A stretch of DNA of 64,000 nucleotides from NCBI RefSeq assembly GCF_013315695.1, contig NZ_CP054353.1; one strand, 5' to 3'. This DNA is from Escherichia coli. Its GTDB lineage: Bacteria; Pseudomonadota; Gammaproteobacteria; Enterobacterales; Enterobacteriaceae. This document shows, piece after piece, positions 784 to 63,337 of the stretch. Within the stretch, counting starts at the first letter, position 1; each line of letters starts with the position of its first letter. The position numbers were made by a program, and so were the translations under genes. The notes beneath the pieces were generated by a model, which was not told the origin of the DNA, searched no databases, and was given only the letters and a program-made list of their open reading frames with translations.

Positions 784-1652
784 TGTCCATTTTAATTGAT
801 AAAAACACCAAGGTTATCTGCCAGGGCTTTACCGGTAGCCAGGGGACTTTCCACTCAGAACAGGCTATTGCATACGGCACTAAAATGGTTGGCGGCGTAA
901 CCCCAGGTAAAGGCGGCACCACCCACCTCGGCCTGCCGGTGTTCAACACCGTGCGTGAAGCTGTTGCTGCTACTGGCGCTACCGCTTCTGTTATCTACGT
1001 ACCAGCACCGTTCTGCAAAGACTCCATTCTGGAAGCTATTGATGCAGGCATCAAACTGATTATCACCATCACTGAAGGCATCCCGACGCTGGATATGCTG
1101 ACCGTGAAGGTGAAACTGGATGAAGCGGGCGTTCGCATGATCGGCCCGAACTGCCCGGGCGTTATCACTCCGGGTGAATGCAAAATCGGTATCCAGCCTG
1201 GTCACATTCACAAACCGGGTAAAGTGGGTATCGTTTCCCGTTCCGGTACACTGACCTATGAAGCGGTTAAACAGACCACGGATTACGGTTTCGGTCAGTC
1301 GACCTGTGTTGGTATCGGCGGCGACCCGATCCCTGGCTCTAACTTTATCGACATCCTCGAAATGTTCGAAAAAGATCCGCAGACCGAAGCGATCGTGATG
1401 ATCGGTGAGATCGGCGGTAGCGCTGAAGAAGAAGCGGCTGCGTACATCAAAGAGCACGTTACCAAGCCTGTTGTGGGTTACATCGCTGGTGTGACTGCGC
1501 CGAAAGGCAAACGTATGGGCCACGCGGGTGCCATCATTGCCGGTGGGAAAGGGACTGCGGATGAGAAATTTGCTGCTCTGGAAGCCGCAGGCGTGAAAAC
1601 CGTTCGCAGCCTGGCTGATATCGGTGAAGCACTGAAAACTGTTCTGAAATAA
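783..1652 (+). CDS. sucD: succinyl-CoA synthetase alpha subunit
   Basis: 289 aa; CoA-binding N-terminus [28 protein letters not shown] and phospho-His loop region; translationally coupled to sucC. Confidence 0.97.
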
Positions 1653-1752
1653 ATATCTGTAATAAGAAATAGCCCTCGCCGCTTCCCTCTACAGGAATGG
1701 CGAAGGGCTGTCGGTTTCGACATGGTTGGCCATCATATGATGGCCTTTTTTA
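1653..1752 (+). ncRNA. sdhX: 3'UTR-derived sRNA of the sdh-suc transcript (SdhX/RybD-like), ending at the sucD terminator
   Basis: Position immediately downstream of the sucD stop, two consecutive hairpins, the second followed by a T-run; assignment rests on recalled K-12 biology, exact 5' end not determinable from sequence. Confidence 0.5.
1728..1751 (+). terminator. rho-independent terminator of the sdh-suc operon
   Basis: Perfect palindrome ggccatcatatgatggcc followed by tttttt. Confidence 0.75.
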
Positions 1753-1857
1753 TTCGGGCACTAATCTGAAAAGTTTGCCCACTGCTTTTTTTCCCCATCC
1801 TCTGCGCAATAATGCCCGGCGAAATATCTCCTCTCCGTTCTGTAAAAGGATTTATAC

Positions 1858-3051
1858 ATGAAGAAAATTGTTCTGCCGGTTGCTCTGGCCCTGATGGGTA
1901 TAAATGCGGACGTTTATGCGGCCGATGTAAAGATCGATATTTTAAGTGCAACAGTGAAAGATAAACGCATTGAGGGGGCATCGGTGACGCTGCAACGCAA
2001 TGGCGCACAATCTGTTTCTGGCACCACAAATGCCTCGGGCAGCATTAATCTGGGCTCTTCCTTTGCCGATGATCAAGATGCTTTGTTAATCGTCAAAAAA
2101 GAGGGCTATTCTAATCTGGTGGTCAAATGCCCGTGTGCGGGCATGACTTATGCGATTAGTCCGGTAATGACTAGTCTGGATGGCATGCGTGTCGTATTGA
2201 GCTGGGGCGAAAAGCCTTTTGATCTTGATTCGCATTTGATCTTCCCTGGCGGACATATTTATTTTGATAGTAAAGAGGGGACTGATGCCAATCTGGATGT
2301 TGATGATACGGATAGCTATGGACCAGAAACTGTCACTATCAGCAAAAAGCATTTTGGCGAAAGTTACATCTATGCCGTGCAGGACTATAGCAATAAAGGG
2401 TTGCCCAACAGTAATTATCTCTCTGCCAGTAAGGCAAAAGTGTTTGTTTATGTAGGGGGCTCCCTGGTGCGTAGTTATAGTGTCCCTGCTGGAAAACGAG
2501 GGAACATCTGGACCGTGTTTAAACTCAATCCAAACGGCGAGTTTGAAGATATCAACTCTGTTACCACCGCCAATTTTAACGACACCACATTAGGCGTCAG
2601 GGATTTAGCCACTGTGATAATGCCTGCGACGGGTTCTTCAACTCCGGCTTCACCTGCGATGCAAAACAGTGGATATACTCAACTGGCAAGAAAATATAAT
2701 CGTGAAGGCGAAGCTGTTTACAAAACCGGTCAACTTGAGCAAGCCATTCAACTCTTCCAACAGGCAACAGAATTAGACGGCAATTACGGTCAGGCATTTA
2801 GTAACCTGGGTCTGGCTTATCAGAAAAATGGCAACATCGCGGAAGCGATTTGGGCAAATCGTAAAGCGATCTCGTTAGCCAGTGGAGCAAATGCGGCGAC
2901 AACGCGCGCTAACTCCTATTATAACATTGCCAAAATTTATGAAACTGCAGGACAGAACGCTGATGCATTGCAGCATTATCAACTCGCTTATGCGGAAAAA
3001 AATAAGCCCTCTTATGAAGAGGCCATCGCACGGGTAAAAGCGAAAATGTAG
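1858..3051 (+). CDS. exported protein of unknown function with C-terminal TPR repeats (middle region resembles a YfaP/DUF2135-like domain)
   Basis: 397 aa; N-terminal signal peptide MKKIVLPVALALMGINADVYAA; AAGGA RBS upstream; C-terminal TPR-like repeats; absent from the K-12 sucD-cydA interval as I recall it. Confidence 0.7.
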   Translation: MKKIVLPVALALMGINADVYAADVKIDILSATVKDKRIEGASVTLQRNGAQSVSGTTNASGSINLGSSFADDQDALLIVKKEGYSNLVVKCPCAGMTYAISPVMTSLDGMRVVLSWGEKPFDLDSHLIFPGGHIYFDSKEGTDANLDVDDTDSYGPETVTISKKHFGESYIYAVQDYSNKGLPNSNYLSASKAKVFVYVGGSLVRSYSVPAGKRGNIWTVFKLNPNGEFEDINSVTTANFNDTTLGVRDLATVIMPATGSSTPASPAMQNSGYTQLARKYNREGEAVYKTGQLEQAIQLFQQATELDGNYGQAFSNLGLAYQKNGNIAEAIWANRKAISLASGANAATTRANSYYNIAKIYETAGQNADALQHYQLAYAEKNKPSYEEAIARVKAKM

Positions 3052-3428
3052 CGGTTAGCAAACAGGAGGCTATGTGGTGTTAGCCTCCTTACCCCCAGGC
3101 CAGTGGGAATATAGTAATCATCGTTTTTAACATTCAACGTCCAGATTCTGCTTGAGCGTAAAAACAAGTCTTTAGATATTTTATAAATGATGAAGGGCTG
3201 GAAAGTGGTTGATGTCACCGACTCACGATCGTTATCGCCAGCAAAGCTTTTTTGCCATTGCACCAGACGCACCTTCAACCATTTTGGCGACGAATCAACT
3301 GCTACCGCCACCAGGCTTGTTTGCCATTTTCCCGTACCTAATTCGTCGCTTGCCGCACTGTTGGCTGTAATCAATGGCCCAATGCCCAACCAGATACTTC
3401 TATATCCGATTGGGTTTTGTTAATTGCG

Positions 3429-4025
3429 TTACCCCTTAAACGTTAACCTCGGTCGAAATCTGACCGCTGGCTGAATTAATCCGGCTTCTTGTTGGGCTTC
3501 GATAACCGGACCAATATCTTTATAAGCAGCTGGCGCTTCTTCAATACGCCGTTCTTCGCGCAATGTGACGCATTGCCACGGCAACGTTGACTCTGCAGTC
3601 GCGCGTGAGCGCATGGCCTGCCGACGCTGGCTGCGTCCTGCTCCGTGACTGCAAGACCACAGCCACTCCGGGTTGCCGCAACCAACCGCAAGCCAGGAAT
3701 AATCACCCATGGAACCGGGGATTAACGCCAGATCGCCCGCGCGTGCCGGTGTTGTGGCCACCACAGCGCCAACGGGGACGCCATTGCCGGGATGAAAATC
3801 TGGCGTCGCGCACGTCTGGCGCACATAACCTGGGTGGTCTGGTAGCTTCACTTCTGCAAAATCAAGCAGTTGTGTTACTGCTTTTTCTTCCAGCGGCAGT
3901 TCGTCCGGCAGCAGTACGCGGGCACTGGCACCTGATGGACGAGATAATGAAACAATATTGTTGGCGCGGGAAAGTTGGATCCCTTTGCGCAGAAAGGCTT
4001 TATCAAGCCTTGAAAGATGATGCAT
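3429..4025 (-). CDS. RtcB-family (RNA 3'-phosphate ligase) C-terminal domain protein; probably a truncated remnant
   Basis: 198 aa containing the RtcB C-terminal hallmarks PGSMG, SHGAGR and EAPAAYKDI...RP...KG; the N-terminal metal-binding half of the family is missing. Confidence 0.55.
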   Translation of the reverse strand: MHHLSRLDKAFLRKGIQLSRANNIVSLSRPSGASARVLLPDELPLEEKAVTQLLDFAEVKLPDHPGYVRQTCATPDFHPGNGVPVGAVVATTPARAGDLALIPGSMGDYSWLAVGCGNPEWLWSCSHGAGRSQRRQAMRSRATAESTLPWQCVTLREERRIEEAPAAYKDIGPVIEAQQEAGLIQPAVRFRPRLTFKG

Positions 4026-4276
4026 AACGCTGTCCTGAAATATAGACGTTAAACAACCCCCTGTATTGCGAGGGTAATTTTGTCTTTCCGGTCAGCAGCC
4101 AGCAAAAGGGAAAGAAAACGCGCGTAGTGTATGTGGCGATAGCAAGTTTTACAAGTGGTAAATCTGGCTTATTGTTAAAGAGGAATTATCTTTTGTGAAG
4201 TCTTTTAAGGCCATGACTCATTCAATTTAACCGGACATAGATAATATATAACATAGGGTATATAAATTTATCATTG

Positions 4277-4405
4277 TATACTTGTCATAATTCAAGTTGC
4301 ATGTGCTGCATCGATGTTCGCTCACCCAGGTCACTTACTTATGTAAGTTTCTGGAAATTCATTATTTGTTCCCTTCCTGCAACTTGACTTATTTAGAGTA
4401 TATTC
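4277..4405. repeat. ERIC/IRU intergenic repeat, degenerate copy
   Basis: Contains ttcaagttgcatgtgctgc and cgctcacccaggtcacttacttatgtaag; about 80% identical to the copy at 49934-50062, which matches the ERIC1R/ERIC2 primer sequences. Confidence 0.8.
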
Positions 4406-4614
4406 ATGTATATGAATAATATTCTTGCAATAATAGCTTTAAAGTATTGCATGCGGATAACTGAGGTGAAATTCCTGTTTTAGGATTATTGTCACTTTAT
4501 TTTCCTGGTTAGACATATAGCTGACTGGTTTGTTTATTTGAATTATGATATTCATTAGTGCTACTGTTTTTTATAAAATAATTTTTGAATTGTTATTTTT
4601 TCACGGACGGCATT

Positions 4615-5520
4615 ATGCGAGGAAAAATACCTAAAACGGAACTGCTGGTGACTTTTGAGGTCGTCGCACGTCATGAAAGTTATACCAGAGCGGCAGAGGA
4701 GTTAGCGTTAACCCAAAGTGCAGTATTCAGACAAGTAAGTGCGCTGGAGGAATTTTTACATACTCCGTTATTTTCACACTCTAAAAAACGCATTTTTCTT
4801 AATGATGCAGGGAAGTATTACCTGGGGATAGTAAAAGAAACATTAAATAAGCTGGAACGCGATACCAATACCATTATGACCTGGCAGCCTACGGTTCAGG
4901 TTATTGAACTTGCCGTTAATCCTACTTTTAGTACCCACTGGTTAATCCCAAATTTACATGAATTCACAAAGTTACATCCCGATATTATTGTTAATATTCA
5001 TTCTTTAGCTAATAACGGCGACTTTCTTAATCGGGAGTACGATGCTGTCATTATGCGCGAAAATTTTTGCGCGCCCTGGGCGGAAGTAGAGTATCTCTTT
5101 GAAGAGGAGATTTTGCCGGTATGCAGCGGCAGTTTGCTTGCAATGTCCGATCAAAAACTGTCAGTGGCAGAACTGCTTACTGAGTTACCACTTCTGCATC
5201 AAAGCACCCGTATTACTGGCTGGGAAGAGTGGTTTGCTTTATCTGGCGTTAGCAGTCCGCTGGTCAATAACGGACCACGTTTCGATTTGCTTTCAATGCT
5301 GATTGCCGCCGTGCGCTCTAATCTCGGCGTGGCGCTGTTACCACGGTTCGCTATTCAACATGATTTGGATAGTGGCGATATGGTGATTCCCTGTGATGTG
5401 CCTATTCGTACCGGTAATCGTTTTATTATGACGTGGCAGGAAGAGAAGTCTGACTCACCGCACTTGCAGCAATTTCGTGAATGGTTGCTGGCGAAATCGG
5501 TCGTACCGCAGGAGATGTAA
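4615..5520 (+). CDS. LysR-family transcriptional regulator
   Basis: N-terminal HTH (ESYTRAAEELALTQSAVFRQVSALE) plus substrate-binding domain; ATG at 4615 preferred over the TTG-extended ORF at 4585. Confidence 0.85.
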   Translation: MRGKIPKTELLVTFEVVARHESYTRAAEELALTQSAVFRQVSALEEFLHTPLFSHSKKRIFLNDAGKYYLGIVKETLNKLERDTNTIMTWQPTVQVIELAVNPTFSTHWLIPNLHEFTKLHPDIIVNIHSLANNGDFLNREYDAVIMRENFCAPWAEVEYLFEEEILPVCSGSLLAMSDQKLSVAELLTELPLLHQSTRITGWEEWFALSGVSSPLVNNGPRFDLLSMLIAAVRSNLGVALLPRFAIQHDLDSGDMVIPCDVPIRTGNRFIMTWQEEKSDSPHLQQFREWLLAKSVVPQEM

Positions 5521-5523
5521 AAC

Positions 5524-5550
5524 CTGCGCCTGGCGGGATGCCAGGCGCAG
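5524..5550. terminator. bidirectional hairpin between the convergent LysR and adenosyltransferase genes
   Basis: 10-bp perfect stem ctgcgcctgg / ccaggcgcag with 7-nt loop. Confidence 0.6.
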
Positions 5551-5553
5551 TTA

Positions 5554-6156
5554 TTACCAGTCGATACCCGGCTGGGCCTGAATGCCGTTATCAAAAGCAT
5601 GTTTGACGGGGCGGATTTCGCTTACCGTATCCGCCATTTTTAATATCTGACTGTGGCAACCGCGTCCGGTGACAATGACACTTTGTTGTGCCGGGCGGTT
5701 TTGCAGAGAAGCGATCACTTCTTCGGTGTCCAGATAATGGTAAGCCAGCATATAGGTCAGCTCATCAAGCACCACTAAGTCGTAACGCTTGTCAGCCAGC
5801 ATCCGTTTGCTTTCCGACCAGACCTCTTTCGCCGCGTCGATATCCGCTTGCCGGTTCTGTGTCTCCCAGGTAAAACCGGTTCCCATAATATGAAACTCAA
5901 CCCCCAGCGGCTGGAGAAGGTTGTATTCGCCGTTGTCCCATTGCCCCTTGATGTACTGCGCAACCCCCACCGTTTTGCCATGACCCACCGCGCGCGTCAC
6001 AGTACCAAACGCGGCAGTGGATTTCCCTTTGCCGTTGCCGGTGAAAACAATCAAGATCCCTTTTTTCTCTATCGCCGCCGCGACGCGCGTATCGACCTGT
6101 TCCTTCAATTTCTGCTGGCGCTGCACATGCCGTTCAGTTGAAATTCGCGCTTCCAT
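5554..6156 (-). CDS. ATP:cob(I)alamin adenosyltransferase (CobA/BtuR family), second copy
   Basis: 200 aa; P-loop VFTGNGKGKSTAAFG; near-colinear with E. coli BtuR as recalled. Confidence 0.85.
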   Translation of the reverse strand: MEARISTERHVQRQQKLKEQVDTRVAAAIEKKGILIVFTGNGKGKSTAAFGTVTRAVGHGKTVGVAQYIKGQWDNGEYNLLQPLGVEFHIMGTGFTWETQNRQADIDAAKEVWSESKRMLADKRYDLVVLDELTYMLAYHYLDTEEVIASLQNRPAQQSVIVTGRGCHSQILKMADTVSEIRPVKHAFDNGIQAQPGIDW

Positions 6157-6165
6157 TCATTTTCC

Positions 6166-7818
6166 TTAATGTCCCGCAGGGCAACTGGCGCAGCGGTGTT
6201 TCTGCTCAAACTGACTAAAGAAATTATTGCCTTTATCATCTACCAGGATGAATGCGGGTAAATTTTCCACTTCCATCATCCACACCGCTTCCATACCCAG
6301 CTCCGGGTATTCCAGGCAACGCAGACTTTTGACATATTCTTGCGCCAGTAACGCAGCTGCACCGCCAATACTTCCCAGATTGAAGCCGCCATGTTTGTGA
6401 CAGGCATCGGTGACCTGCTGGCTGCGGTTACCTTTCGATAACATCACCAGACTGCCGCCAGCCGCCTGGAAGGTATCGACATAACCGTCCATTCGACCGC
6501 CCGTGGTTGGACCCAGTGAACCGCAGGCCATGTTCTCCGGTGTTTTCGCCGGGCCAGCGTAATAGACAATATGATGCTTCAGGTAATCCGGCATCGGTTC
6601 GCCGCTATCCAGCCGCGCTTTTATTTTGGCGTGGGCGATATCGCGCGCCACTACGATGGGACCACTTAACGACACGCGGGTGCCTACCGGTAATCTGGCG
6701 AGATCCTGCATCACGTCACGCAACGGACGATTTAGATCCAGCTGTACATGTTGCGCGTGATTTTCTTCCCGCAGTGAGGCTGGAATATATTGCCCCGGAT
6801 TGTGTTCGAGTTTTTCCAGCCAGATACCGTGCTTGTTAATTTTTGCTTTGATATTGCGATCCGCAGAACAGGAGAGCGTCATAGCTATCGGGCAAGAGCC
6901 ACCGTGACGCGGCAGACGAATGACGCGAATATCATGAGCGAAATATTTACCCCCAAATTGCGCACCAATACCAAATTGCTGACTGGCCTCGAGCAATACT
7001 TTTTCCAGCTCAATATCACGGAATGCTTGTCCTTGCTCGTTTCCGCTGGTGGGCAAATTGTCGTAATATTTCGTTGAGGCCAGCTTGGCAACTTTTAAGG
7101 TTTGATCGGCTGAAAGCCCTCCGACGACAAAGGCGATGTGGTAAGGCGGGCAGGCAGCGGTGCCCAGCGATTTCATTTTTTCGATTAAAAATGCGGTCAG
7201 TTTTTCTGGTTGCAATAGGGATTGGGTTTCCTGATAAAGCGCGGCTTTATTGGCAGAGCCGCCCCCTTTATTAATACAGAGAAAATGGTACTCATCACCA
7301 GCGACGGCGCTGATATCAATCTGCGCCGGGAGATTGGTTTGCGTATTGACTTCGGTAAACATATCCAGTGGCGCATTTTGTGAAAAGCGCAGATTATTTT
7401 CCTGAAAAGTGGTGTAAATGCCTTTGCTTAAGGCTTCAGCGTCGTTACCTCCGGTCCATATCTGTTGCCCTTTACTGGCAACAATAGTTGCGGTGCCGGT
7501 ATCCTGACAGTTGGGTAATACCCCTTTTGCTGAGACTTCAGCATTACGTAATAACTGCAACGCAACGTATTTATCATTACTACTGGCGTGCGGATCGTTA
7601 AGAATGCTGGCGACCTGTTGCAAATGAGCGGAACGTAAGAAAAAAGAGGCTTCATAAAATGCCTGCCGGGCAAGCAGCGTTAATGCTTCAGGAGCGATTT
7701 TTATCACTTCTTCGCCGTCTAATTCCGTTACTGTAATATGTTGATCGCTAATTAATGTATATTCTGTACCGTCTTTATTTTGTAGAAACGGTTCTTGCCA
7801 GATAAATGGTTTGGACAT
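6166..7818 (-). CDS. fumD: class I (Fe-S) fumarate hydratase family; probable mesaconase/fumarase FumD
   Basis: 550 aa, FumA/FumB-like length and N-terminus ([11 protein letters not shown]...); lies in the methylaspartate operon. Confidence 0.8.
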
Positions 7819-7925
7819 ATTTCACTTTTCACCTTAAACGTTAGTTTTACTTAATTGCCGTCTAACTTCATGATCCGGCTTATAAAAATGCGTAGTCATT
7901 GGCTTCTGATTGCTTAAGATCCCCC

Positions 7926-9206
7926 TCAGGGCAGAGCAACGTTCGATTCATTGGGTTTTAATGCTTTACCCCGACAGCCCTCGCCGAAATGTTCGCCTTC
8001 CCACCGACTCACCATCGCAGCGCCCATTGCGTTGCTCATGACGTTTGTCGCGGAACGCCCCATATCAAGGAACGGATCAACGCCCATCAGCAAGATCAGC
8101 CCCGCTTCCGGAATATTGAACTGGTTGAGCGTGGCGGCGATAACCACCATTGAGGCGCGTGGTACGCCAGCCATTCCTTTCGAGGTCAACATCAGGATCA
8201 ACAGCATGGTGATTTGCTCACCGATGGATAAATGGATATTGCAGGCCTGGGCGATGAAAACTGTGGCGAAGGAGCAGTAGGCCATTGATCCAACGAGATT
8301 AAATGAGTAGCCAATGGGTAAGACAAAGCTGGCAATTTTGGGGGAAACGCCAAATTGCTCCAGTTTTTCAAGCGTTCCCGGAAAAGCCGCTTCAGAACTG
8401 GATGTGGTAAATGCCAGCAGGGCGGGTTCCGAAAGGGCACGGGTCAGGCGTCTGATGCAGGGGCCGACATAAACGATGGCCAGACCGATAAGCAGCACCC
8501 AAAGTAACAACATGGTGAAATAAAATTCACCCATAAAGATCCCGGCGCTCACCATAACTGCCAGTCCTCGTTCAGCAATCAATGCTGAAATAGCGGCGAA
8601 TACGGTCAGGGGAGCGAAGAGCATGACGTAGCCAGTGAGCTTTAACATGGCATGTGCCAGCGAATCTAAGGCGTGAACGATGGCGCTGCCTTTCTCACCA
8701 ATCGCCGTCAGGCTACAGCCGAGGAAAATTGAGAACACCACGATTTGCAAAATTTCATTGTGCGCCATGGCATCGACAATGCTGGTGGGGAAAGCATGCG
8801 AAATAAATACTTTTAGTGTAAAGGGTTCTGACGCGACCACTCCGGTGGTTTCGGCACCGTGTGCAACAAAATTAATTCCTGTGCCTGGCATGAAGAAATT
8901 TACCGTTATCAAGCCTAAGGCAATTGACAGCAATGAGGCGCAAATAAATAAAAAGAGTGTTTTAGAAAAAATACGACCAAGGGCTTTGGCATCTCCCATT
9001 TTAGCTATACCTACCACCAGGGTAGAGACCACTAACGGAGCGATAATCATTTTTATCAGTCGTAAGAAAATCGTCGTGAATATCGATATTTCTTGCGCAT
9101 AGAGTTTTGCGGTTTCCGGTGAAGCAGTGTTATTGAGCACTACGCCGATAATCATTCCAAGTACCAGCGCCAAAAGAATCATCGTGGTTAAACTTATTTT
9201 CTTCAT
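7926..9206 (-). CDS. DctA-like dicarboxylate/amino acid:cation symporter (DAACS family)
   Basis: Polytopic membrane protein of DctA-like length; start moved to the ATG at 9206, which is preceded by GGAGGA. Confidence 0.8.
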   Translation of the reverse strand: MKKISLTTMILLALVLGMIIGVVLNNTASPETAKLYAQEISIFTTIFLRLIKMIIAPLVVSTLVVGIAKMGDAKALGRIFSKTLFLFICASLLSIALGLITVNFFMPGTGINFVAHGAETTGVVASEPFTLKVFISHAFPTSIVDAMAHNEILQIVVFSIFLGCSLTAIGEKGSAIVHALDSLAHAMLKLTGYVMLFAPLTVFAAISALIAERGLAVMVSAGIFMGEFYFTMLLLWVLLIGLAIVYVGPCIRRLTRALSEPALLAFTTSSSEAAFPGTLEKLEQFGVSPKIASFVLPIGYSFNLVGSMAYCSFATVFIAQACNIHLSIGEQITMLLILMLTSKGMAGVPRASMVVIAATLNQFNIPEAGLILLMGVDPFLDMGRSATNVMSNAMGAAMVSRWEGEHFGEGCRGKALKPNESNVALP

Positions 9207-9251
9207 TTTTTCCTCCATCAGGTGCACGGCGATAAATCAGAATCAGGAGAA

Positions 9252-9283
9252 GTAGATGCCTGAATAGAGATTCAGGCATCTAC
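9252..9283 (-). other. intercistronic stem-loop (14-bp perfect stem, 4-nt loop) inside the operon
   Basis: gtagatgcctgaat agag attcaggcatctac; no U-run follows on the transcribed strand. Confidence 0.5.
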
Positions 9284-9366
9284 CTGCTATTACAACCTTA
9301 CAAATAGCTGAAGTGTTGAACTGCAATAAGTGACGGGATGTCAGTTGGCTAAAAGTATTCGGATTT

Positions 9367-9684
9367 TTACAAATCGAAACTCATATTTAATAAAGGTGCA
9401 TGTTGCTGTGCACCATAGACATCATTGTCACCTACATTCCCGGAGATAATATCTCGTGGCATGACGATTTTTACTGCGTTAGAAGGATCAAACCAGACAA
9501 TACGGTGAATAAAGTCAGGTTCAACATGATATAAGCGCGCAATCAGTTCTGGGGTTAATTGCCCTGATGATTTAACTCGCTCATAGTTTTCTTTCGTTTT
9601 AAATAAAATATCTAAAACCAGTTCGTAAGGTCCGGCATTTTTCGAACGAATGACTTGCGCCAGTGAGACAATTGACTGTTTCAT
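9367..9684 (-). CDS. small protein of unknown function (DUF4387/AtuB-like by recollection)
   Basis: 105 aa ORF whose start overlaps the stop of the upstream gene by 4 nt (translational coupling). Confidence 0.6.
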   Translation of the reverse strand: MKQSIVSLAQVIRSKNAGPYELVLDILFKTKENYERVKSSGQLTPELIARLYHVEPDFIHRIVWFDPSNAVKIVMPRDIISGNVGDNDVYGAQQHAPLLNMSFDL

Positions 9685-11051
9685 GCCTGAACTCCTTCTG
9701 GCGTCACCTGTTCAATATGGAAATCAAAACGCAGAGCGTCGTTGGCTTCAATCAGGTGATATATGGAAAATTCGTATACCGGCCCGCCCTGGATATCAGA
9801 AGGGGAGAACGGGAACGCCAGATTGCCTGCGGTAGCGATGCGGTTTTCATAGCCGTAGTGCAGCATGGTAGAGCGCACCAGCGAGCAAACGCTATTGGCA
9901 ATTTCCTGGGTCGGTGCAACTACATCAAGGACAATCCCCAGCTCATGCCCGGCAGTTTGCATCGGTTCATGGTCGCCCATCACCCCGTTTTTGCCGTACA
10001 GGTGGAAATTGATGCGAATGCTGTCATCGTCGAGCGACAGGTTACGCCAAACGCTGGTTTTGACTTCATCGATGATTTTATCGATCCCGGCGATCATGAT
10101 CGGGTCGCGCGTTCCTGCGATGGTCAGACAGCGGAAGCCCACCCGTCGCGCACCTTCCAGTTTCAGGGCATACGGCGTTTCTTCATGCTTAGAACCGCTG
10201 ACGTACACTTCGCCGTCATTGACCGCTTTAAATGTGCAGCCTTTCAGGTTCAACACGCCGCCAGGTCCAGGCAGGAAGTAGGGATCGGATTTCTCATACA
10301 GTGTGTGTGCAGCCGCTGACGTTTCGGTAAATTTACGCTTCGGATTAAATGTCTTCAGCGTAAAGCCGTTGTCATCAATGATGCCCATCGCACAGTCAGA
10401 GCCTGAGCCGGGCGTTGCGGCGATTGCCGCGCATTCAAGGATTTTCCCACAATGCAGCGCCAGACCTTCATCAAAGCCTTGCATGATCGGGAGCGCAGCA
10501 AAGCAGGCCGGGTCGTAAGCGCGCCCGCCCAGCACCACTTGCGCGCCTTCTTTCAGCGCCCGCTGGAAGGGTTCGATGCCCATTTGCGCGACGATATACG
10601 TACTTTCGTCAATCGCGTCGTGGGTTAACGGCGGGACAAAATCCAGCGCCGTGATTTTGCCGTTATCCAGCGCCTGGTGGACGATGGCTTTGTCAACGTC
10701 TGCCGGGATCAACGCCATCGAGAACGAGAGGTGCTCTTCCTGGGCAATCTCATGAATTATTTCTCGGCACCACTCCAGGTGTGGTGCGGCACCAGAACCG
10801 CCAGCTGTTCCGATCACCACCGGTATATTATTTTGCACGCCTGCGGTGATCATATAGCGCAGATCGCGCTTGACCCCTGCGCGATCGGTAAACGGTTTGC
10901 CTGCCCCGAGGTAGTGGGGGCCTGGATCGGAAGAGCCTGCATCAACGGCGATCAGATCGGGCGATTCTGCCATCGCTTTGCGGAAGCTCTCTTCCGGGAA
11001 TCCATACCCGAGGATTGCCGTTGGCGATAAGACTTTAAAAGAACGAGCCAT
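9681..11051 (-). CDS. DUF1446 (AtuA-like) family protein, function unknown
   Basis: 456 aa; family assignment is from memory of the N-terminal region and is unverified. Confidence 0.6.
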   Translation of the reverse strand: MARSFKVLSPTAILGYGFPEESFRKAMAESPDLIAVDAGSSDPGPHYLGAGKPFTDRAGVKRDLRYMITAGVQNNIPVVIGTAGGSGAAPHLEWCREIIHEIAQEEHLSFSMALIPADVDKAIVHQALDNGKITALDFVPPLTHDAIDESTYIVAQMGIEPFQRALKEGAQVVLGGRAYDPACFAALPIMQGFDEGLALHCGKILECAAIAATPGSGSDCAMGIIDDNGFTLKTFNPKRKFTETSAAAHTLYEKSDPYFLPGPGGVLNLKGCTFKAVNDGEVYVSGSKHEETPYALKLEGARRVGFRCLTIAGTRDPIMIAGIDKIIDEVKTSVWRNLSLDDDSIRINFHLYGKNGVMGDHEPMQTAGHELGIVLDVVAPTQEIANSVCSLVRSTMLHYGYENRIATAGNLAFPFSPSDIQGGPVYEFSIYHLIEANDALRFDFHIEQVTPEGVQA

Positions 11052-11054
11052 TTG

Positions 11055-12296
11055 TTAATCCTTAGCCTGCAACAGCGCGATAGTACGATTCATTTCGTTG
11101 AAGACGATATCGAGGCCTTCGTCAAAGCCCATCCCTGGCTTTACCAGCATACGCATAGGGCGAGCGGCAAGGGCGACGTGGACACAGGTGCGGGCACTGA
11201 CATCAGTTTCATTGCAGGTGCCGCCCTGGTACGCTTCCATGCTGTGGCTGTTGCAGTAAAGAACCGCATCGACGATGTTGTGAATACTGCCCAGATCCGG
11301 GGTTTTGATTTGCACCATGTGACAACTGGCGGCATCAGTGAAATCAACAATATCCTGGTAGGTGTTACACCATTCATCGGCCACAATTTTCACGCCGGAA
11401 CCGAGGCGCGTCAGCTCTTTGGTAATCGCGGTCAGCAGGCGAATTTGATCGGGCTTGTTACCGGCATCGACCGGCCCTTCAATGTAGAGCGGCAGGCCTT
11501 GCGCTTCTTTTTCCAGGCTGGCGATGTATTGCGCACAGCGAAGCGGATCCATATCGAAGATCAGGCCGATAGTGCCGTATACATCGATGTGCAGGGTTGG
11601 GTGGTAGCGTGCGCTGGTGCGCTTGCTCAGAATACGATCCGACAGCCAGCGGACATATTCGCGCAGTTTTTCACCTTTAAAGCCCAGTTTCTCTTCGACG
11701 TTATTAATCAGTGCATGGGGCAGCACGTCGATGCCCTTAAGGATCATCTTATCGACGGCGATATATCGATCGTCCCCGCTCTGACCAAATAATGGAATGG
11801 ATTCCGCCACGCGTGGCAACTGCCATTCATCACAGACCACTTCAGTTTTCAGACGGCCGGTTGCCAGCGCGGTAGCATCAAGCAGCGCCTGTGATAATCC
11901 GTAGCGCACGGCGGTATGCAGCAAGTTGCCGTCAATACGCAATTTGTCGAAGAAACGGGCATTCGGCAGGAAAGCATCCACATCGCGGCCTATCAGTAAT
12001 GGCTTGATATGGTCGTTGAGGAACGGAATAAAGTGCTCAGCGAGGAACAGTGGATCGCGACCACCTGCCCCGGAATACTGTACGGCAGCACAGTCACCTA
12101 CGGCGACCGCGCCGTTTTCCAGAATCAACTGTACCGATACGCACTCCCCGGCCTGACGAACGGCGTTAAACCCCTGTGTTACCGGCTCCCCGGTATAAAA
12201 AAAGCCGTCATGACCCGCTCCGTTTTTTATCGCCTGCTGGTCATCGAAATAGAATGAGGAGTAGCCAGCAGTGAACAGAGCCTGTTTTATTTTCAT
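11055..12296 (-). CDS. mal: methylaspartate ammonia-lyase (beta-methylaspartase)
   Basis: 413 aa; N-terminus MKIKQALFTAGYSSFYFDDQQAIKNGAGHDGF matches clostridial MAL. Confidence 0.9.
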   Translation of the reverse strand: MKIKQALFTAGYSSFYFDDQQAIKNGAGHDGFFYTGEPVTQGFNAVRQAGECVSVQLILENGAVAVGDCAAVQYSGAGGRDPLFLAEHFIPFLNDHIKPLLIGRDVDAFLPNARFFDKLRIDGNLLHTAVRYGLSQALLDATALATGRLKTEVVCDEWQLPRVAESIPLFGQSGDDRYIAVDKMILKGIDVLPHALINNVEEKLGFKGEKLREYVRWLSDRILSKRTSARYHPTLHIDVYGTIGLIFDMDPLRCAQYIASLEKEAQGLPLYIEGPVDAGNKPDQIRLLTAITKELTRLGSGVKIVADEWCNTYQDIVDFTDAASCHMVQIKTPDLGSIHNIVDAVLYCNSHSMEAYQGGTCNETDVSARTCVHVALAARPMRMLVKPGMGFDEGLDIVFNEMNRTIALLQAKD

Positions 12297-13741
12297 TATG
12301 GTCTTCCTATTAATTTACTGTGGGATACAGCATTGATGTCATCTACAACCATCTGGAATGTCGGTTGGCGTCCTTCAAAGCGTGCGCGTTCCGCAACGTA
12401 ATCGTGGTGGAGGTCGAGAATATCTTTTGGCAATGGAACGGCTCCGGCTTCCAGTACGCGTATCGCGCCGGTGTTGTCACGGACCGGAAGAATTTTGCCC
12501 GCGTTGCAGGCGGCTGGCGCAAACGGCACATCCAGTACGCCCGCTTCAAATGCCAGCACCGTACCGCGCGCAATATCACCATTACCCAGTTCGAACACTT
12601 TATTCAGTACCGCGTGAACCTCGCTCTTAATCAGTTCAATTTCCAGTTCAACCGCAGGGCACGGCGGGAATTTCTGCTCGTTGACCATGTTGAGCATCTG
12701 GCGGGAGGCTTTCAGCCCCTGAATGTTGGCAGCGGCAGTCGGGATGCCCCAGGCTTCGTGCGGACTTTTGGTGATGACTTTGGTGGCACCAGACATCCCC
12801 GCGACGGCTGCGCCCCAGGAGATAATAGCGAACGCTTTCGATTCGTCTTCCGGAAAGCCGCCCATCCACTGGTGAAACACGGTACTTAATTCATAGTCGG
12901 TATAGCCATAGCTCTGAAAATATTCGTGTGCAAGTTCACGCAGAGACTGGATCGCCGCAACATCCTGCGTCAGGCTGCCGACCTGTCCATAACCAACGGT
13001 GATAGATTTCACACCCTGTTCCAGCGCCAGTAATCCTTCGATTATCGCGATAGAGTGCGAGATAAACGGCGGGATCAGGGTACCCGTTAGTGGGCCAAAC
13101 GGTTCGCGGTTGATGCGGATCCCGTGTTCTTCATACATCCCCATTAAACGGTCGCAGTACTGCCAGTCGCGGATCGATTTTTCCAGCGTTACGCGCTTGG
13201 CATACGGAATGTTGTAGGAAATGCCGCCGCCTTCATAACTGGTAAAGCCGCTGGCCATCGAGATTTCAGCCAGCAGACGCGCATCTGGCGTGCCGTGGCG
13301 GATCTGTAGCGGTTTTTGCAAAGTTTCGGTGAGGCGACGGCAAGCTGCGACGCCGTGGTTAACGACCGGTAAACCGTTCAGTTTAGAGGTTCCGGCTTCG
13401 ATGGATTTTTTAATCCCTACAGCCGCTTCTTCGTACCGATTCAGACGGGTATATGCGTCGATGGTGCTCGGCAGCAGATCGCATTCTTCTTGTAGTGTTT
13501 TCAGTAGTTCGATGTGTTCGTCCATCAGCGCCACGCCTGCGCGCGGTTGGCTAAGAGTTTTACCTTCCTTGTCTGCTTTCAGCAGGGCAAGAGAGAAGCG
13601 TTTATGCTCAGGAATGGTTTGTTGGTATTTAACGCCATCTTCAAAGTTTTCAACATCCTTGCCGGTTTCCCAGGTTTTCAGTACCTGTTGCCGCTCGGTC
13701 ATGAATTCGTCATGGGTTAATTTCTTATTTCGAAGTTCCAT
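12296..13741 (-). CDS. glmE: glutamate mutase epsilon (E) subunit
   Basis: 481 aa; N-terminus MELRNKKLTHDEFMTERQQVLKTW resembles clostridial GlmE/MutE. Confidence 0.88.
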   Translation of the reverse strand: MELRNKKLTHDEFMTERQQVLKTWETGKDVENFEDGVKYQQTIPEHKRFSLALLKADKEGKTLSQPRAGVALMDEHIELLKTLQEECDLLPSTIDAYTRLNRYEEAAVGIKKSIEAGTSKLNGLPVVNHGVAACRRLTETLQKPLQIRHGTPDARLLAEISMASGFTSYEGGGISYNIPYAKRVTLEKSIRDWQYCDRLMGMYEEHGIRINREPFGPLTGTLIPPFISHSIAIIEGLLALEQGVKSITVGYGQVGSLTQDVAAIQSLRELAHEYFQSYGYTDYELSTVFHQWMGGFPEDESKAFAIISWGAAVAGMSGATKVITKSPHEAWGIPTAAANIQGLKASRQMLNMVNEQKFPPCPAVELEIELIKSEVHAVLNKVFELGNGDIARGTVLAFEAGVLDVPFAPAACNAGKILPVRDNTGAIRVLEAGAVPLPKDILDLHHDYVAERARFEGRQPTFQMVVDDINAVSHSKLIGRP

Positions 13742-13759
13742 TGATTGCAGCCTTAATTG

Positions 13760-15148
13760 TTATAGGGTTAAGCATTGAATACTGGTGCGCGCGGCGGCCA
13801 GCGGATCGACTCTGGCGACGTTTGCCAGCAGTGGTAATAGCCCCCGGGAATCGCGGTAATATTCAAATTCGGTCGGTAAGAGAATGCGTTTACCGTCGTC
13901 GTTTAACTCGCGGTATTTCAACCAGTGATGCATATCGAACTGACTGGCACGCGAGAGCCATCCGCCGGATCCGACGACTTTACGCACGGTTGTCAGGTCA
14001 CGTCCCATCTGTAAATCGACATTGCCGACGCAGGTGCAGACCTCTTTTTTGGTGCCCGCATGTCTTTCGGTGGCATAACCCACACACAGTCCGGCCAGGA
14101 CTGTATCGAAATATTTTTCTTCTGCATTCGCGGGTAAGTAGTCGGGATGAGCGACTAGATGACGGAGGTAATGATAAAAAGCGTCCAGCTGTGCGGGTTG
14201 CTGAGCAAAATTCACATTGACTAACTCTTTCGCACTTTCACCAACCACCATTGCCGAGACGCGCATTCCCAGATCGCCTTCCACCGTCCGTTTCACGAAG
14301 GGTTCCGGTACGCCGTGTAAAACGGTGTCGGGCGAGAGCGTGTTGGCACAGGCGGAATAGACATCGGTGGTTGCGCCACCCATGTCGATCAGTATGAACT
14401 CTTTCCAGCTGTGATCGACATTACTGATTGCCTTAACCAGTTCAAAGACTGTCCACGGTGTCGGCATTGGTTCTTCGCCTGTTTTATCAACAACGACATC
14501 CAGCCCTTTCCCTTTAACGATGCGTTTAAGGAATATGTCGCAGATAGCCTGGCGTGCAGCTAAAGGGTTCGGATGGTCAAGATCGGGCAGAACGTTGTCG
14601 ACGATGGTCAGGTCTTTATGCCCTAGGATCTCCTGCACCTCGTCCTGAATATCCCGGTTTCCGGCATAAATAATGGCGCAGTCGAGTTTGGATTCTGCCA
14701 GCACACGGGCGTTATTCAGGCCGTAGCTTTCTTCTCCGCCGTCGGTGCCGCCGGTGAACAAGAGAATATCGGGCTGCGTTTCTTCCAGTGCCTGGATATC
14801 ACGGCGGTTCAGCTTGTAGGAGTAATATTGCGCAATTTTAGCCCCCGCAGAGTGAGCGGTTACTTTCGCGGTTTCCAGGGTGATAGAAGGCACCAATCCC
14901 ATTGCGGCAACCGCCAGCCCACCTTTGGCAGAGGAGGAATACTTCAATGCAACCTCACCGTTGTTAAACAGGGGGAGGGTATTATCTACGTTTAACACCA
15001 GGTTCAGGCTGGAGAAAAACCCCTTCGCCAGATGATGGGTGGTGGTTGGGGTCAGTACGTGGTTAACCAACGTTAACGCGTCCCCCTCCCGGGCGAAGAG
15101 GGCTGCTTTGGTCCACGTCGATCCAATATCGACAGAGACGATTTGCAT
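13760..15148 (-). CDS. glmL: glutamate mutase L component (MutL/GlmL)
   Basis: 462 aa, the size of clostridial GlmL; sits between the S and E subunit genes. Confidence 0.8.
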   Translation of the reverse strand: MQIVSVDIGSTWTKAALFAREGDALTLVNHVLTPTTTHHLAKGFFSSLNLVLNVDNTLPLFNNGEVALKYSSSAKGGLAVAAMGLVPSITLETAKVTAHSAGAKIAQYYSYKLNRRDIQALEETQPDILLFTGGTDGGEESYGLNNARVLAESKLDCAIIYAGNRDIQDEVQEILGHKDLTIVDNVLPDLDHPNPLAARQAICDIFLKRIVKGKGLDVVVDKTGEEPMPTPWTVFELVKAISNVDHSWKEFILIDMGGATTDVYSACANTLSPDTVLHGVPEPFVKRTVEGDLGMRVSAMVVGESAKELVNVNFAQQPAQLDAFYHYLRHLVAHPDYLPANAEEKYFDTVLAGLCVGYATERHAGTKKEVCTCVGNVDLQMGRDLTTVRKVVGSGGWLSRASQFDMHHWLKYRELNDDGKRILLPTEFEYYRDSRGLLPLLANVARVDPLAAARTSIQCLTL

Positions 15149-15597
15149 CAGATTGCCTCTTCAAGAATACGAGTATCAACGTCATGACGTTGGTTGATAT
15201 CGTGTGCCATCAGCTGACAAACATCTTCTAAGTCATGACTTGGGGCAAAGACGCGATCAAATCCCATCTCTTTGAATTTGGTTTCCACGTCAGCGAAGTC
15301 ATGTTTTCCGACCACCAGGTTACCGCCCACATAGAGCAGGATGTCCCCCAGTCCACGCTCGATGCAGCGTTCGCGCATGCCCAGACAGTCGATATCGCCA
15401 TGCCCATAGATAGAGGAGACGACAATCGCGTCAGCGCCAGTTTCAATGGCCGCATCAATATATTCGTCCTGGCTGACCATTACGCCCAGATTAATGACTC
15501 TGAAGCCATGGTTGCTAAAAACGCGGTCCAGAACTTTATTGCCTACTGCATGGCAGTCCGCGCCAATAACGCCAATCACAAGTGTTGCTTTCTTCAT
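15148..15597 (-). CDS. glmS: glutamate mutase sigma (S) subunit, cobalamin-binding
   Basis: B12-binding domain; start taken at MKKATLV (15597), preceded by AAGGA, rather than the longer ORF from 15660. Confidence 0.85.
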
Positions 15598-16143
15598 GGG
15601 TAATCCTTTGTAAGACAGAGAGTAAAATAAGTTACACACGTCGTATTTATGGCCGTTCATAACGGCACAGGTTTAATATCACAGGAGTGTCTTTATCTGA
15701 CCGTAATGTTGCAATTGATCTATTTTCAAAATGTCTTTCGGGAAATGATTGTTTAAAGTATGTTGTTAAATTCTCATGTTAATTCAGTGTGTTATGTCAA
15801 CTAATGTCATGAATGTTAAATTTTTAAAATTAACTTGATTTGGTGTATTGAGGTATTTGTGATCTACTTCTAATTTGCATTTTAGTGATATGGGTTTAGC
15901 CATGAGTAAATGCATTTCATAAAATTTAAGTCGAATTTCACTGCAATTCATCTCTGCTTAATGTAAAAATAATGTTGAAAATAACAAATGGTTAATGATT
16001 CATGCGAATTATGACCTTAGTTAGCTCTTTTGATTTTTCGTAAAAAAGAGAGGTACATGAAGGTGCTACCAGTATGAGTAACGTTAATCAAAGGTTTTAT
16101 TACGTCTGGCAATAACGCAGGCCATTTTCGCGACTGGGTGGAT

Positions 16144-16566
16144 TTAATCAGTATAATCCTCATACAATAGTTCACGATTAACTGAACCGTTAACGGGGAT
16201 TTGGTGTTGAAATTTAGAAATGGCGGAGTCAATTAATGAAGACAATATCGAAAAAATGACAGTGTCAGAATTAATTTCAATTAATCCTTCTCGTTGTTGA
16301 CCAAAAAAGATATTTATCTTGATTTCATTTGTACTACGGCAATCAATATGTAGTAATTTTTGATCGCTGAGATTTTCTGTTTCATAAATGTTTTTGGCGA
16401 TAGTCGGATGTATTGATGCCAGACATCTGCTCAGATAAGCCAGATCCTTTAGGGAACACCCCGCTGAGTAGAGGATGTCAGAGAATTTTTGTGTGTTAAC
16501 TGTTGTCTCTGAAGCGTATGTTGCATTGACAGGAAGGGTGTTGAAAGAGATTTGAGATGGGAGCAT
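16144..16566 (-). CDS. hypothetical protein, no recognisable domain (AT-rich)
   Basis: 140 aa ORF, Ser/Thr/Asn-rich N-terminus; same strand and 80 bp downstream of the 314-aa ORF. Confidence 0.55.
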   Translation of the reverse strand: MLPSQISFNTLPVNATYASETTVNTQKFSDILYSAGCSLKDLAYLSRCLASIHPTIAKNIYETENLSDQKLLHIDCRSTNEIKINIFFGQQREGLIEINSDTVIFSILSSLIDSAISKFQHQIPVNGSVNRELLYEDYTD

Positions 16567-16646
16567 TATTTAAATCTTTCCGTGAGTAATAAAAATTAAT
16601 CCCCGGGCATTGTTTAGCAATATTTGCCACAGGTAATATATAAAAA

Positions 16647-17591
16647 TTAAAGTATTTGATTGGCATCGGTTAACTGATCAATAACCAGTGCCAGATTGGT
16701 AAACATTTTGAAAAAGCGATACTGGCTCGGAATATCTCTTTCAAAGACGAAACATTCAATGTCATTGTTTGAAAAATAAAGGACTAGTGTTGCTGATTCG
16801 TCAGGAAAAATATGGAAATATATCTGGTTACCAGAAGGAGGATAGTCCAGAAGAAGGGTATCTTTGCCCGTCACATACCTGTTGTGGTCGTGGATGCTGC
16901 GCTCACACTTCATCAGAGGTGTCATGATACTCATGTATTCATCTGATGTTAATATATTAAAATCACCATCCATTTTAAAGAAACGATAAAGTAACAGTAC
17001 ATCCTCTTGCGTAACCGGTTCGTTTGTTTTTAGAGGGAAATAAGTGGGAACCAGAAGATGAGGTTCTAATCTATTTTGTTGAGCGCTATAACTAAATTTG
17101 AACATAAATTCCGGATCGCTCATCAATTGAGCGACATAATTATGCCTGGCTTCAAAAATTTTAACTTTTATCAGGTTAAATAAGTCTGTTTCGTCATCCT
17201 GTATTAAAAGACATTGGCCATAGCAGCCAGGCTTTTTTTCATTATAAGCAGAAACGGTTATTCTGTCAGGAGTGTCAACGTTATATCCAAAAGCCAGATA
17301 GTGACCGTCCTCATCGAGATTTGTTTCCAGGTTATTTAAATTTATCACATGAAGTGTTTGCAATGCTGATTCAATGAGCTGTTGACTCTCTGAGGTAAAT
17401 GTTTCGCGCTGCGTTGTATAAAGTGTATCGATTCCAACGACTATCCGATATGGGTCAAGGATGGCGGCAATCATCTTTATTACCTGCACAGCCACGGGTG
17501 ATGTCATTGATTCGTTATCTGTTTTTAGAGGATCATTAGATGGCCAACCTGAGAAGCGATTGACAGCCGAACCGATATTATCAGGACTCAT
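16647..17591 (-). CDS. hypothetical protein, no recognisable domain (AT-rich)
   Basis: 314 aa ORF, acidic and Phe/Tyr-rich; GAGG RBS about 9 nt upstream of the ATG. Confidence 0.6.
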   Translation of the reverse strand: MSPDNIGSAVNRFSGWPSNDPLKTDNESMTSPVAVQVIKMIAAILDPYRIVVGIDTLYTTQRETFTSESQQLIESALQTLHVINLNNLETNLDEDGHYLAFGYNVDTPDRITVSAYNEKKPGCYGQCLLIQDDETDLFNLIKVKIFEARHNYVAQLMSDPEFMFKFSYSAQQNRLEPHLLVPTYFPLKTNEPVTQEDVLLLYRFFKMDGDFNILTSDEYMSIMTPLMKCERSIHDHNRYVTGKDTLLLDYPPSGNQIYFHIFPDESATLVLYFSNNDIECFVFERDIPSQYRFFKMFTNLALVIDQLTDANQIL

Positions 17592-17949
17592 AGCAGCAAC
17601 CTCATTGTAATCAAGCGAGGCGCTGAGCGTACTCGGCTATAGAAAAACTAACTTGCAAAAATCGCTCATTTTTCATTTATCAGGCGAAAGTGGTCTCTGT
17701 TCACTCAGAAACAATCACTCCCGCTAAGTCATACCTGTTTCATCGATACACTTAAGTGATTATTACTAATGAAACAATAACATAACGGGCTTACGGCCGG
17801 TGCTCATAAAGGCAACAATCAATTAACTTTGATAAAAATATGTTATGTAAAATAGCAACAAATTGGCTAATCTAATCAATTGGTATTATAAAAAGTGGAT
17901 AAGGCGGTTCTGTTAAATAAAACACTGGTTTTTTATCTATACCTTTTCA

Positions 17950-25966: not shown

Positions 25967-26512
<546 letters not shown>

Positions 26513-26521
26513 GAGAATTGC

Positions 26522-27477: not shown

Positions 27478-27553
27478 GGGTCGTTAGCTCAGTTGGTAGA
27501 GCAGTTGACTTTTAATCAATTGGTCGCAGGTTCGAATCCTGCACGACCCACCA
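27478..27553 (+). tRNA. lysT: tRNA-Lys (UUU)
   Basis: 76 nt gggtcgttagctcagttggtagagcagttgacttttaatcaattggtcgcaggttcgaatcctgcacgacccacca. Confidence 0.97.
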
Positions 27554-27688
27554 ATCGCTAAGGTGGAAGCGGTAGTAAAACGTGAAGGATAACGTTGCGT
27601 CAGCAACGGCCCGAAGGGCGAGACGAAGTCGAGTCATCCTGCACGACCCACCACTAACATAGTTAGTTGTAGTATCCAGCGTAGTATT

Positions 27689-27764: not shown

Positions 27765-27766
27765 CC

Positions 27767-27969: not shown

Positions 27970-27972
27970 CTC

Positions 27973-63330: not shown

Positions 63331-63337
63331 GGTGTAC

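Follow-up and report, generated by a model that had tools for sequence, protein, structure and literature searches.

We have found that positions 1653–1753 of a 64-kb stretch of Escherichia coli DNA (contig NZ_CP054353.1; hereafter the window) are best explained, on the evidence as a whole, as the small RNA gene sdhX, that is, the 3′ untranslated region (3′UTR) of sucD. We hold it very probable that this element is functionally intact and that the DNA downstream of it is a mosaic, variable slot. The K-12 annotation of sdhX can safely be transferred to 1653–1753. SdhX links expression of a TCA-cycle operon to acetate metabolism, and this link would be unchanged here despite heavy turnover of the genes downstream. 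The slot is a clean example of the 3′ end of a functional RNA setting the edge of a variable region.

Background

Both the SdhX sRNA and the methylaspartate/FumD gene cluster treated here have already been described. SdhX (RybD) is an sRNA that depends on Hfq and that RNase E liberates from the 3′ end of the ~10-kb sdhCDAB-sucABCD mRNA (PMC6393394). Its seed lies just 5′ of the terminator, and the core of the seed, CGACAU, complements ackA codons 1 and 2; repression of AckA by SdhX has been found in work on K-12 and Salmonella (PMC6393394). E. coli SdhX has an additional target, katG, with which it pairs through its non-conserved 5′ part, and removing the entire 3′UTR lowers SucD (PMC6393394). 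In Salmonella, SdhX occurs as an 87-nt SdhX1 and a 38-nt SdhX2 (PMC6393394). The FumD “glutamate fermentation” cluster was described for O157:H7 and is reported in 26.5% of E. coli (PMC4682846).

Methods

Megablast was used with window positions 1400–2400 as the query against a database of 5,426 complete E. coli genomes, 5,425 of which were matched. Classes of junction downstream of sdhX were counted in the same 5,426 genomes at a coverage threshold of 80%. The interval folded was 1652–1752, an offset of one base that leaves the structure unaffected. In the duplex calculation for the seed and ackA, SdhX was restricted to its linker and seed. Functional statements are based on the K-12 and Salmonella work, the window sequence being 98% identical.

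Results and discussion

An intact sdhX follows sucD

The window enters the operon in the middle of sucC. The elements needed for the following paragraphs are these:

783–1652, + strand: sucD coding sequence (succinyl-CoA synthetase alpha subunit), from the open reading frame list and the RefSeq annotation of MS 21-1 and K-12
1653–1753, + strand: sdhX (SdhX/RybD), a 3′UTR-derived sRNA of 101 nt, from equivalence to K-12 b4764
1671–1709, + strand: 5′ hairpin (15 base pairs and a single bulge), within the portion of the sRNA that is specific to E. coli, from the fold
1716–1726, + strand: seed UUCGACAUGGU with core CGACAU at 1718–1723, in the single-stranded linker, as defined in PMC6393394 and invariant in 12 sequences
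1728–1745, + strand: Rho-independent terminator stem-loop GGCCAUC-AUAU-GAUGGCC with 7 pairs and a 4-nt loop, from the fold and a terminator scan
1746–1751, + strand: U6 tract, the expected Hfq-binding 3′ tail, from alignment (the K-12 blastn match ends at 1751)
1752–1755, + strand: 4-nt flank ATTC, degenerate as [A/G]T[G/T]C, from the junction table and alignment

The TAA stop codon of sucD occupies 1650–1652, and 1653 is the first base of the 3′UTR. In K-12 MG1655 the ncRNA sdhX (b4764) is annotated at 765050–765150, adjoining the 3′ end of sucD, and the layout in which the sucD stop codon is followed on the same strand by sdhX at the end of the sdh-suc operon is common to K-12 and the window. 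When aligned, the two sdhX sequences are identical at 99 of 101 positions. The mismatches are at 1735 (A in the window vs G in K-12), which is in the terminator tetraloop, and at 1752 (again A vs G), which is the first base past the T6 run. An earlier reading of the window, made from its sequence only, had taken the sucD 3′UTR with its two hairpins and T-run terminator to be intact and to be the element that yields SdhX in K-12. Both statements are borne out by the alignment, in which every one of these features is present, and by the annotation of b4764 at the equivalent position. The interval then proposed, 1653–1752, starts at exactly the right base and stops one base short of the end of sdhX at 1753.

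Across 1653–1753, Rfam 15 gave zero family matches at the gathering score. Hits overlapping this interval in a permissive scan were a RyhB-like terminator, weak at 15 bits (E = 6.4), and a fungal snoRNA that was just as weak; no SdhX family was reported. The identity of SdhX is therefore based on the K-12 annotation and on published sequence features.

The predicted fold consists, in order, of the 5′ hairpin, the single-stranded linker with the seed, the G+C-rich terminator hairpin and the U6 tract. Its energy is −40.8 kcal/mol (z = −5.3 against 200 shuffles), and the terminator scan picks the same hairpin as the fold, at 1728–1745. Across 11 Escherichia sequences, 98.8% of the cells of the 5′ hairpin are paired, standard pairs occupy 99.2% of pair cells, and all seven pairs of the terminator stem are invariant. 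There is a single compensatory change, from C-G to U-A at 1680/1699 in E. albertii; since nearly all pairs are invariant, support from covariation is thin. The loop base at 1735 is polymorphic, being A in the window, G in K-12 and U in Nissle 1917, AR_0055 and E. albertii.

The sRNA would be altered or hybrid if the junction with foreign DNA lay inside the 3′UTR, which was the outcome that the sequence-only reading had named as its own refutation. This is excluded by the 99/101 identity to K-12 and by the fact that the 5′ part, the seed, the stems of both hairpins and the U6 tract are the same in both; the variable loop base also differs among genomes of the K-12 type.

The gene is present in 5,425 of the 5,426 complete E. 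coli genomes. Among the matches listed, apart from those that were full-length or TPR-only, the alignments end at query bases 352–354, corresponding to window positions 1751–1753, the sole exception being a match that ends at 1725 owing to an IS1 element. This insertion is in FDAARGOS_944 (NZ_CP065613.1), where IS1 occupies positions 6327–7094 of the extracted locus, inside sdhX at the equivalent of window positions 1717–1725. Its 9-bp target duplication, TCGACATGG, is exactly the seed stretch that pairs with ackA. FDAARGOS_944 is likely to be a natural sdhX mutant, because IS1 parts the sucD 3′UTR from its terminator.

The seed is invariant in the 11 Escherichia sequences and in Citrobacter amalonaticus. 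In C. amalonaticus S646 the seed and the terminator equal those of E. coli, while the 5′ part forms a different hairpin (CCCCTTCAT...ATGAAGGGG) and the downstream flank is different as well. This fits the literature, according to which conservation of SdhX between genera is confined to the seed and the U-tail.

With respect to known forms of the sRNA, the window resembles K-12 SdhX (b4764) in its position after the sucD stop codon, length, 5′ hairpin, seed, terminator stem, U6 tract and complementarity to ackA. It differs from K-12 in having A rather than G at 1735 and 1752, and in that the next gene is a co-directional gene for a tetratricopeptide repeat (TPR) protein rather than the convergent mngR. 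Salmonella SdhX shares with the window the core seed CGACAU before the terminator, the same model of biogenesis and ackA as the primary target; its 5′ part differs and lacks the region that pairs with katG (PMC6393394), whereas the window has the 5′ part of the E. coli type.

Predicted pairing with ackA

In the computed duplex, SdhX positions 1716–1725 pair with positions −2 to +8 of the K-12 ackA leader. The energy of this duplex is −16.7 kcal/mol; shuffled targets gave −9.9 ± 2.3 kcal/mol, 7 in 1000 of them being as good. The unconstrained duplex between full-length SdhX and ackA was no better than those with shuffles. With the K-12 ackA leader as the query, identity reached 99% or more in 5,405 of 5,424 complete genomes.

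The published model, carried over to the window, would run as follows. The sdhCDAB-sucABCD transcript would terminate at the hairpin and U-tract of 1728–1751, RNase E cleavage would free its 3′ end as SdhX, and the sRNA would be bound by Hfq. The single-stranded seed at 1716–1726 would then pair with the start-codon region of ackA and acetate kinase would be repressed, and the E. coli-specific 5′ part of SdhX would also target katG. From these parallels we infer that termination at 1746–1751, RNase E processing, Hfq binding and AckA repression take place in strains of the window type. The sdhX allele of the window is expected to function normally, because the two bases at which it departs from K-12 are in the tetraloop and just past the U-tract.

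Identity to K-12 ends just past the terminator

Identity to K-12 is last unbroken at T1751, where the blastn alignment ends; the last base of the shared flank is C1755, and from 1756 the two sequences are unrelated. The expectation that non-K-12 sequence would begin right after the terminator was thus confirmed, and the alignment to K-12 sdhX that had been proposed as a check, once run, put the loss of identity at 1751/1755. The flank at 1752–1755 reads ATTC in the window vs GTGC in K-12, and its degenerate form is common to nearly all of the Escherichia arrangements compared. The junction sequences all read ...GATGGCC-T(6-8)-[A/G]T[G/T]C and diverge past it. In K-12 the stop codon of the convergent mngR is found 2 nt past sdhX, at the equivalent of window positions 1756–1758. 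Homology to K-12 is resumed at 18021, upstream of cydA (start at 18397), and the interval between amounts to 5.9 kb in K-12 (mngR, mngA, mngB and a spacer) vs 16.3 kb in the window. In every arrangement examined, sdhX is untouched and divergence sets in at most 4 nt past the U-tract.

Downstream of this point the window contains the following:

1756–1857, + strand: spacer upstream of the TPR gene, which accompanies that gene in all genome types, from alignments
1858–3051, + strand: TPR gene, encoding a secreted-looking protein of 397 aa with C-terminal TPR repeats at residues ~278–390, from the open reading frame and Pfam TPR
3012–3389, − strand: open reading frame (ORF) of 125 aa with no family match, from the ORF and the lack of a Pfam/NCBIfam match
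3429–15660, no strand assigned: methylaspartate/FumD cluster, from the MS 21-1 annotation and PMC4682846, found in 1,122 of 5,426 genomes
3429–4025, − strand: rtcB, shortened to 198 aa (vs 465 aa) by an in-frame internal deletion, from comparison with 2017-02-2CC
16144–17591, − strand: two low-GC hypothetical genes of 140 aa and 314 aa with no family match, between the cluster and cydA, from annotation
17756 and 18021, no strand assigned: resumption of homology on the right-hand side with Nissle 1917, AR_0055 and E69 (17756) and with K-12 (18021), from alignments

A mosaic slot between sdhX and cydA

The junctions found downstream of sdhX in the survey were:

sdhX–mngR (K-12 type): 3,867 of 5,426 genomes
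sdhX, a ~40-bp rtcB remnant, a LysR-type gene and the methylaspartate cluster (O157:H7 type): 833 genomes
sdhX, full-length convergent rtcB and the methylaspartate cluster: 157 genomes
sdhX–TPR: 545 genomes

Continuation as in the window, through 3435, was found in only 5 of the 545 sdhX–TPR genomes, so that the window-type arrangement accounts for 5 of the 5,426 complete genomes. The gene for methylaspartate ammonia-lyase is present in 1,122 of 5,426 genomes. At 80% coverage, these 1,122 cluster carriers compare with 995 genomes in the three junction classes that bear the cluster (157 + 833 + 5), and hence ~127 genomes must have further junction variants. In MMC-J-0078 the match to the O157-type junction ends at 263 of 400 bases.

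The arrangements seen between sdhX and cydA are therefore mngRAB; mngRAB and the TPR gene; the TPR gene only; the TPR gene with the 125-aa ORF and the cluster, as in the window; and the cluster flush against sdhX with full or remnant rtcB. Judging from these distributions, mngRAB of K-12 is itself accessory, and the difference between the window and K-12 is thus a replacement and not an insertion into a K-12-like backbone. The K-12 genes mngR-mngA-mngB (mannosylglycerate utilisation) occupy the same slot as the modules of the window and start at the same nucleotide past the sdhX flank; they are absent from the window, are unrelated to its genes in sequence and function, and mngR is convergent with sucD. 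Taken together, the comparisons characterise the sdhX-to-cydA interval as a mosaic, strain-variable region, polymorphic for presence and absence between strains at a fixed chromosomal site.

Other Escherichia species show part of the same variation. The rtcB-remnant junction is found in E. whittamii and in Escherichia sp. E1V33. In E. albertii, sdhX is followed by a homologue of the 125-aa ORF, then by a region 80.6% identical to window positions 16541–18434, and then by cydA; this species carries the 125-aa and 314-aa ORFs and has neither the TPR gene nor the cluster. The window type holds the fullest set of backbone pieces (the TPR gene and the 125-aa, 140-aa and 314-aa ORFs) in addition to the cluster. 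The 9,051 bases compared between the window and GCA_900448625.1 are identical; against MS 21-1 there are 14 differences in the first 18,400 bases.

The sequence-only reading had seen, immediately past the terminator, the left junction of an island that preserved SdhX. SdhX is indeed preserved and collinearity with K-12 does end there, but the position is not the edge of the metabolic island: the TPR DNA found there also borders SdhX in genomes that lack the cluster, and the cluster starts at ~3429. A single contiguous block with one left junction at 1752–1756 was not found, since the TPR module (1756–3051) and the cluster (3429–15660) occur independently in other genomes.

That one contiguous island (~1753–18020), with the TPR gene first, was inserted in a K-12-like backbone at the end of the sdhX terminator we consider quite unlikely. 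Such an event would suit the lack of any homology to K-12 throughout 1756–18020, and also the finding that, among the 24 contigs read, the exact TPR allele of the window was only ever found in the window context. The genome survey contradicts it: ~540 genomes join sdhX to the TPR gene without the continuation seen in the window; in Nissle 1917 and E. coli E69, sdhX, a TPR pseudogene and cydA follow one another without the cluster or any other part of the island; and in 990 genomes sdhX is linked to the cluster and no TPR gene is involved. Moreover, AR_0055 has its TPR gene downstream of mngB, preceded by a separate terminator copy, and in K-12 the slot is filled by mngRAB, itself variable, which leaves no empty K-12 site.

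The TPR gene as a probable older neighbour of SdhX

The TPR gene is co-directional with sucD, starts 105 nt past sdhX and lies outside the methylaspartate cluster. The survey found it in 1,112 of 5,426 genomes, at two different positions, and ~574 genomes have a more diverged copy (90–95% identity). AR_0055, a genome with the sdhX–mngR junction of K-12, has such a diverged copy between mngB and cydA.

The spacer between mngB and the TPR gene of AR_0055 holds a second, diverged copy of the sdhX terminator, GGTCATC-TCCG-GATGGCC-TTTTT, without the seed, at positions 8872–8894 of the extracted locus. It is followed by TAATCTGAAAAGT...TTTTTTT, which is homologous to the 1756–1857 spacer of the window. 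Comparison of the AR_0055 copy with the E69 junction gave a Smith-Waterman score of 50 vs 16.4 ± 2.3 for shuffles, and the alignment begins at the hairpin. A duplication of the whole of sdhX after mngB in AR_0055 was considered and rejected (score 16 vs 14.3 ± 2.3 for shuffles), as only the terminator and spacer are significant. A remnant of the TPR spacer was also sought after mngB in K-12, where no significant match was found (the scores were reached by 15 and by 133 of 300 shuffles).

The second terminator of AR_0055 is probably a relic of the recombination that placed mngRAB beside the TPR gene. Because a terminator copy and the spacer precede the TPR gene there, the terminator and the TPR gene would have been neighbours before mngRAB; on the simplest reading of these sequences, their adjacency is older than the arrival of mngRAB between them. 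The spacer and TPR gene of the window would accordingly be the older neighbour of SdhX. The junction at which rtcB is flush with sdhX could be as old as the one with the TPR gene, because it is found in two other Escherichia species.

A scan of the + strand of the 1756–1857 spacer gave no sigma-70 consensus promoter. The sdh-suc operon is highly expressed. Read-through from it could matter for expression of the TPR gene, because this gene is co-directional and has no obvious promoter of its own, whereas the neighbour in K-12 is convergent. A possible second terminator at 1757–1795 (GGGCA...UGCCC followed by U7) was rejected, its hairpin not being conserved in E69 or AR_0055.

In the RefSeq annotation of MS 21-1 the TPR gene starts at ATG 1894 (385 aa), while the ORF from ATG 1858 encodes 397 aa. 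A good Shine-Dalgarno sequence (AAGGA) goes with the start at ATG 1858, as does an N-terminus resembling a signal peptide, MKKIVLPVALALMGINADVYAA; proteins of both lengths exist in public protein sets. A search with the TPR protein gave only near-identical E. coli proteins among the best 120 matches listed, which consequently say little about its origin.

The cluster and its edges

The 125-aa ORF shares 40 bp with the 3′ end of the TPR gene, and just 5 of 5,426 E. coli genomes have the segment in which it lies, 3051–3435. E. albertii NBRC 107761 has a homologue, at 59% amino-acid identity, ~80 bp past sdhX. Its place next to sdhX in that species suggests that the 125-aa ORF is probably a real and old gene of the slot.

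The stop codon of the window rtcB (3429–3431) is the left end of the block that is flush against sdhX in other genomes. This rtcB has kept its start and stop codons and has lost ~267 codons relative to the 465-aa gene of 2017-02-2CC, with a 9-bp overlap at 3746–3754. When the window is compared with 2017-02-2CC, which is of the full-rtcB type, the match extends up to 1753 and returns at 3436, at the 3′ end of rtcB, so that 1756–3433 (the spacer, the TPR gene and the 125-aa ORF) lies between sdhX and the cluster. On the right side of the cluster, the 140-aa and 314-aa genes and cydA are the same in both. These comparisons place the left edge of the cluster in the window at ~3429, about 1.7 kb past SdhX. 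Elsewhere the cluster is joined directly to the SdhX flank (157 full-rtcB and 833 O157-type genomes), which is not the case in the window. The window type could have arisen from a full-rtcB genome by insertion of 1756–3433, or the full-rtcB type from the window type by deletion; either direction would fit.

Like the FumD cluster of O157:H7, the cluster of the window comprises FumD (a class I fumarase), methylaspartate ammonia-lyase, glutamate mutase (subunit E, GlmL and GlmS), a dicarboxylate symporter and cobO, and it occupies the same sucD–cydA slot. The O157:H7 cluster is joined to the sdhX flank through the 40-bp rtcB remnant, whereas the window interposes the TPR gene, the 125-aa ORF and the deleted rtcB. 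The region of the two hypothetical genes is common to E. albertii (the 80.6% match over 16541–18434) and the full-rtcB type. The G+C content is 36–37% at 4001–5000 (the rtcB–LysR intergenic region) and at 16001–18000, and 50–56% in the core of the cluster.

Why the boundary is sharp

The stop codons of mngR and rtcB abut or overlap the flank of the terminator; in the full-rtcB type, the stop codon of rtcB consists of the last two Ts of the U-tract and the A that follows. We favour a selective explanation of the sharp boundary. The sequence up to the terminator would be under selection for the sRNA and for SucD expression, and the DNA past the U-tract would be free to be exchanged and trimmed, the convergent mngR and rtcB having been trimmed down to their stop codons. 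On this view the sRNA and SucD between them would need all of the sequence as far as the U-tract, hence the sharp boundary.

Alternatively, the 3′ edge of the sdhX terminator could be an active site of recombination or integration, with the hairpin itself promoting illegitimate or homology-facilitated recombination; unrelated modules would then have joined repeatedly at one nucleotide on mechanistic grounds and not by selection alone. Four unrelated downstream sequences (mngR, rtcB, the TPR spacer and the E. albertii flank) do start within 0–1 nt of one another, AR_0055 has its second, diverged hairpin copy beyond mngRAB, and one genome has IS1 in the seed just upstream. We nevertheless judge such activity unlikely. 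The near-identical MS 21-1 annotation of the region contains no integrase or transposase genes, no tRNA target was found at the boundaries (the nearest tRNAs in the Rfam scan being at 27478 and beyond), and a search for att-like sequences or direct repeats pairing the boundaries found none. If the TPR spacer is the ancestral flank, two or three independent events suffice; stop codons of mngR and rtcB that abut the terminator are the product expected of deletional trimming; and one recombination event, anchored in the suc or cyd genes, could account for the duplicated hairpin.

The same edge could be a recurrent breakpoint of module exchange in Escherichia, as at least three to four unrelated modules are joined to the chromosome at one and the same nucleotide, 4 nt past the U-tract. 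To this, too, we assign a low probability. As part of it, one exchange, with mngRAB arriving beside the TPR gene or the reverse, may have left the decaying hairpin copy. If it were true, a functional sRNA terminator would limit the turnover of cassettes beside a core operon and would perhaps also be a substrate for that turnover. The selective explanation remains the one that we favour.

Minor observations

An inverted match of 18 nt (16/18) to the seed end and terminator arm of sdhX, ATCATTAGATGGCCAACC, is found at 17532–17549 inside the 314-aa gene, ~200 bp from the point at which homology of the Nissle type resumes. It was rejected as a meaningful repeat and is probably due to chance, as it falls within the range of chance matches in the repeat list.

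The LysR-type regulator gene at 4615–5520 is intact in the window (301 aa). In MS 21-1, a change from G to A at 4883 accompanies its annotation as a pseudogene with an internal stop codon.

Further along the window, Rfam matched a CpoB/ybgF thermometer at 26413–26551, seven tRNAs and an RtT element at 27478–28278, and a Moco riboswitch at 63206–63350. These matches fit the expected E. coli order downstream of the slot, sucD ... cyd-tol-pal-cpoB-tRNA ... moaA.
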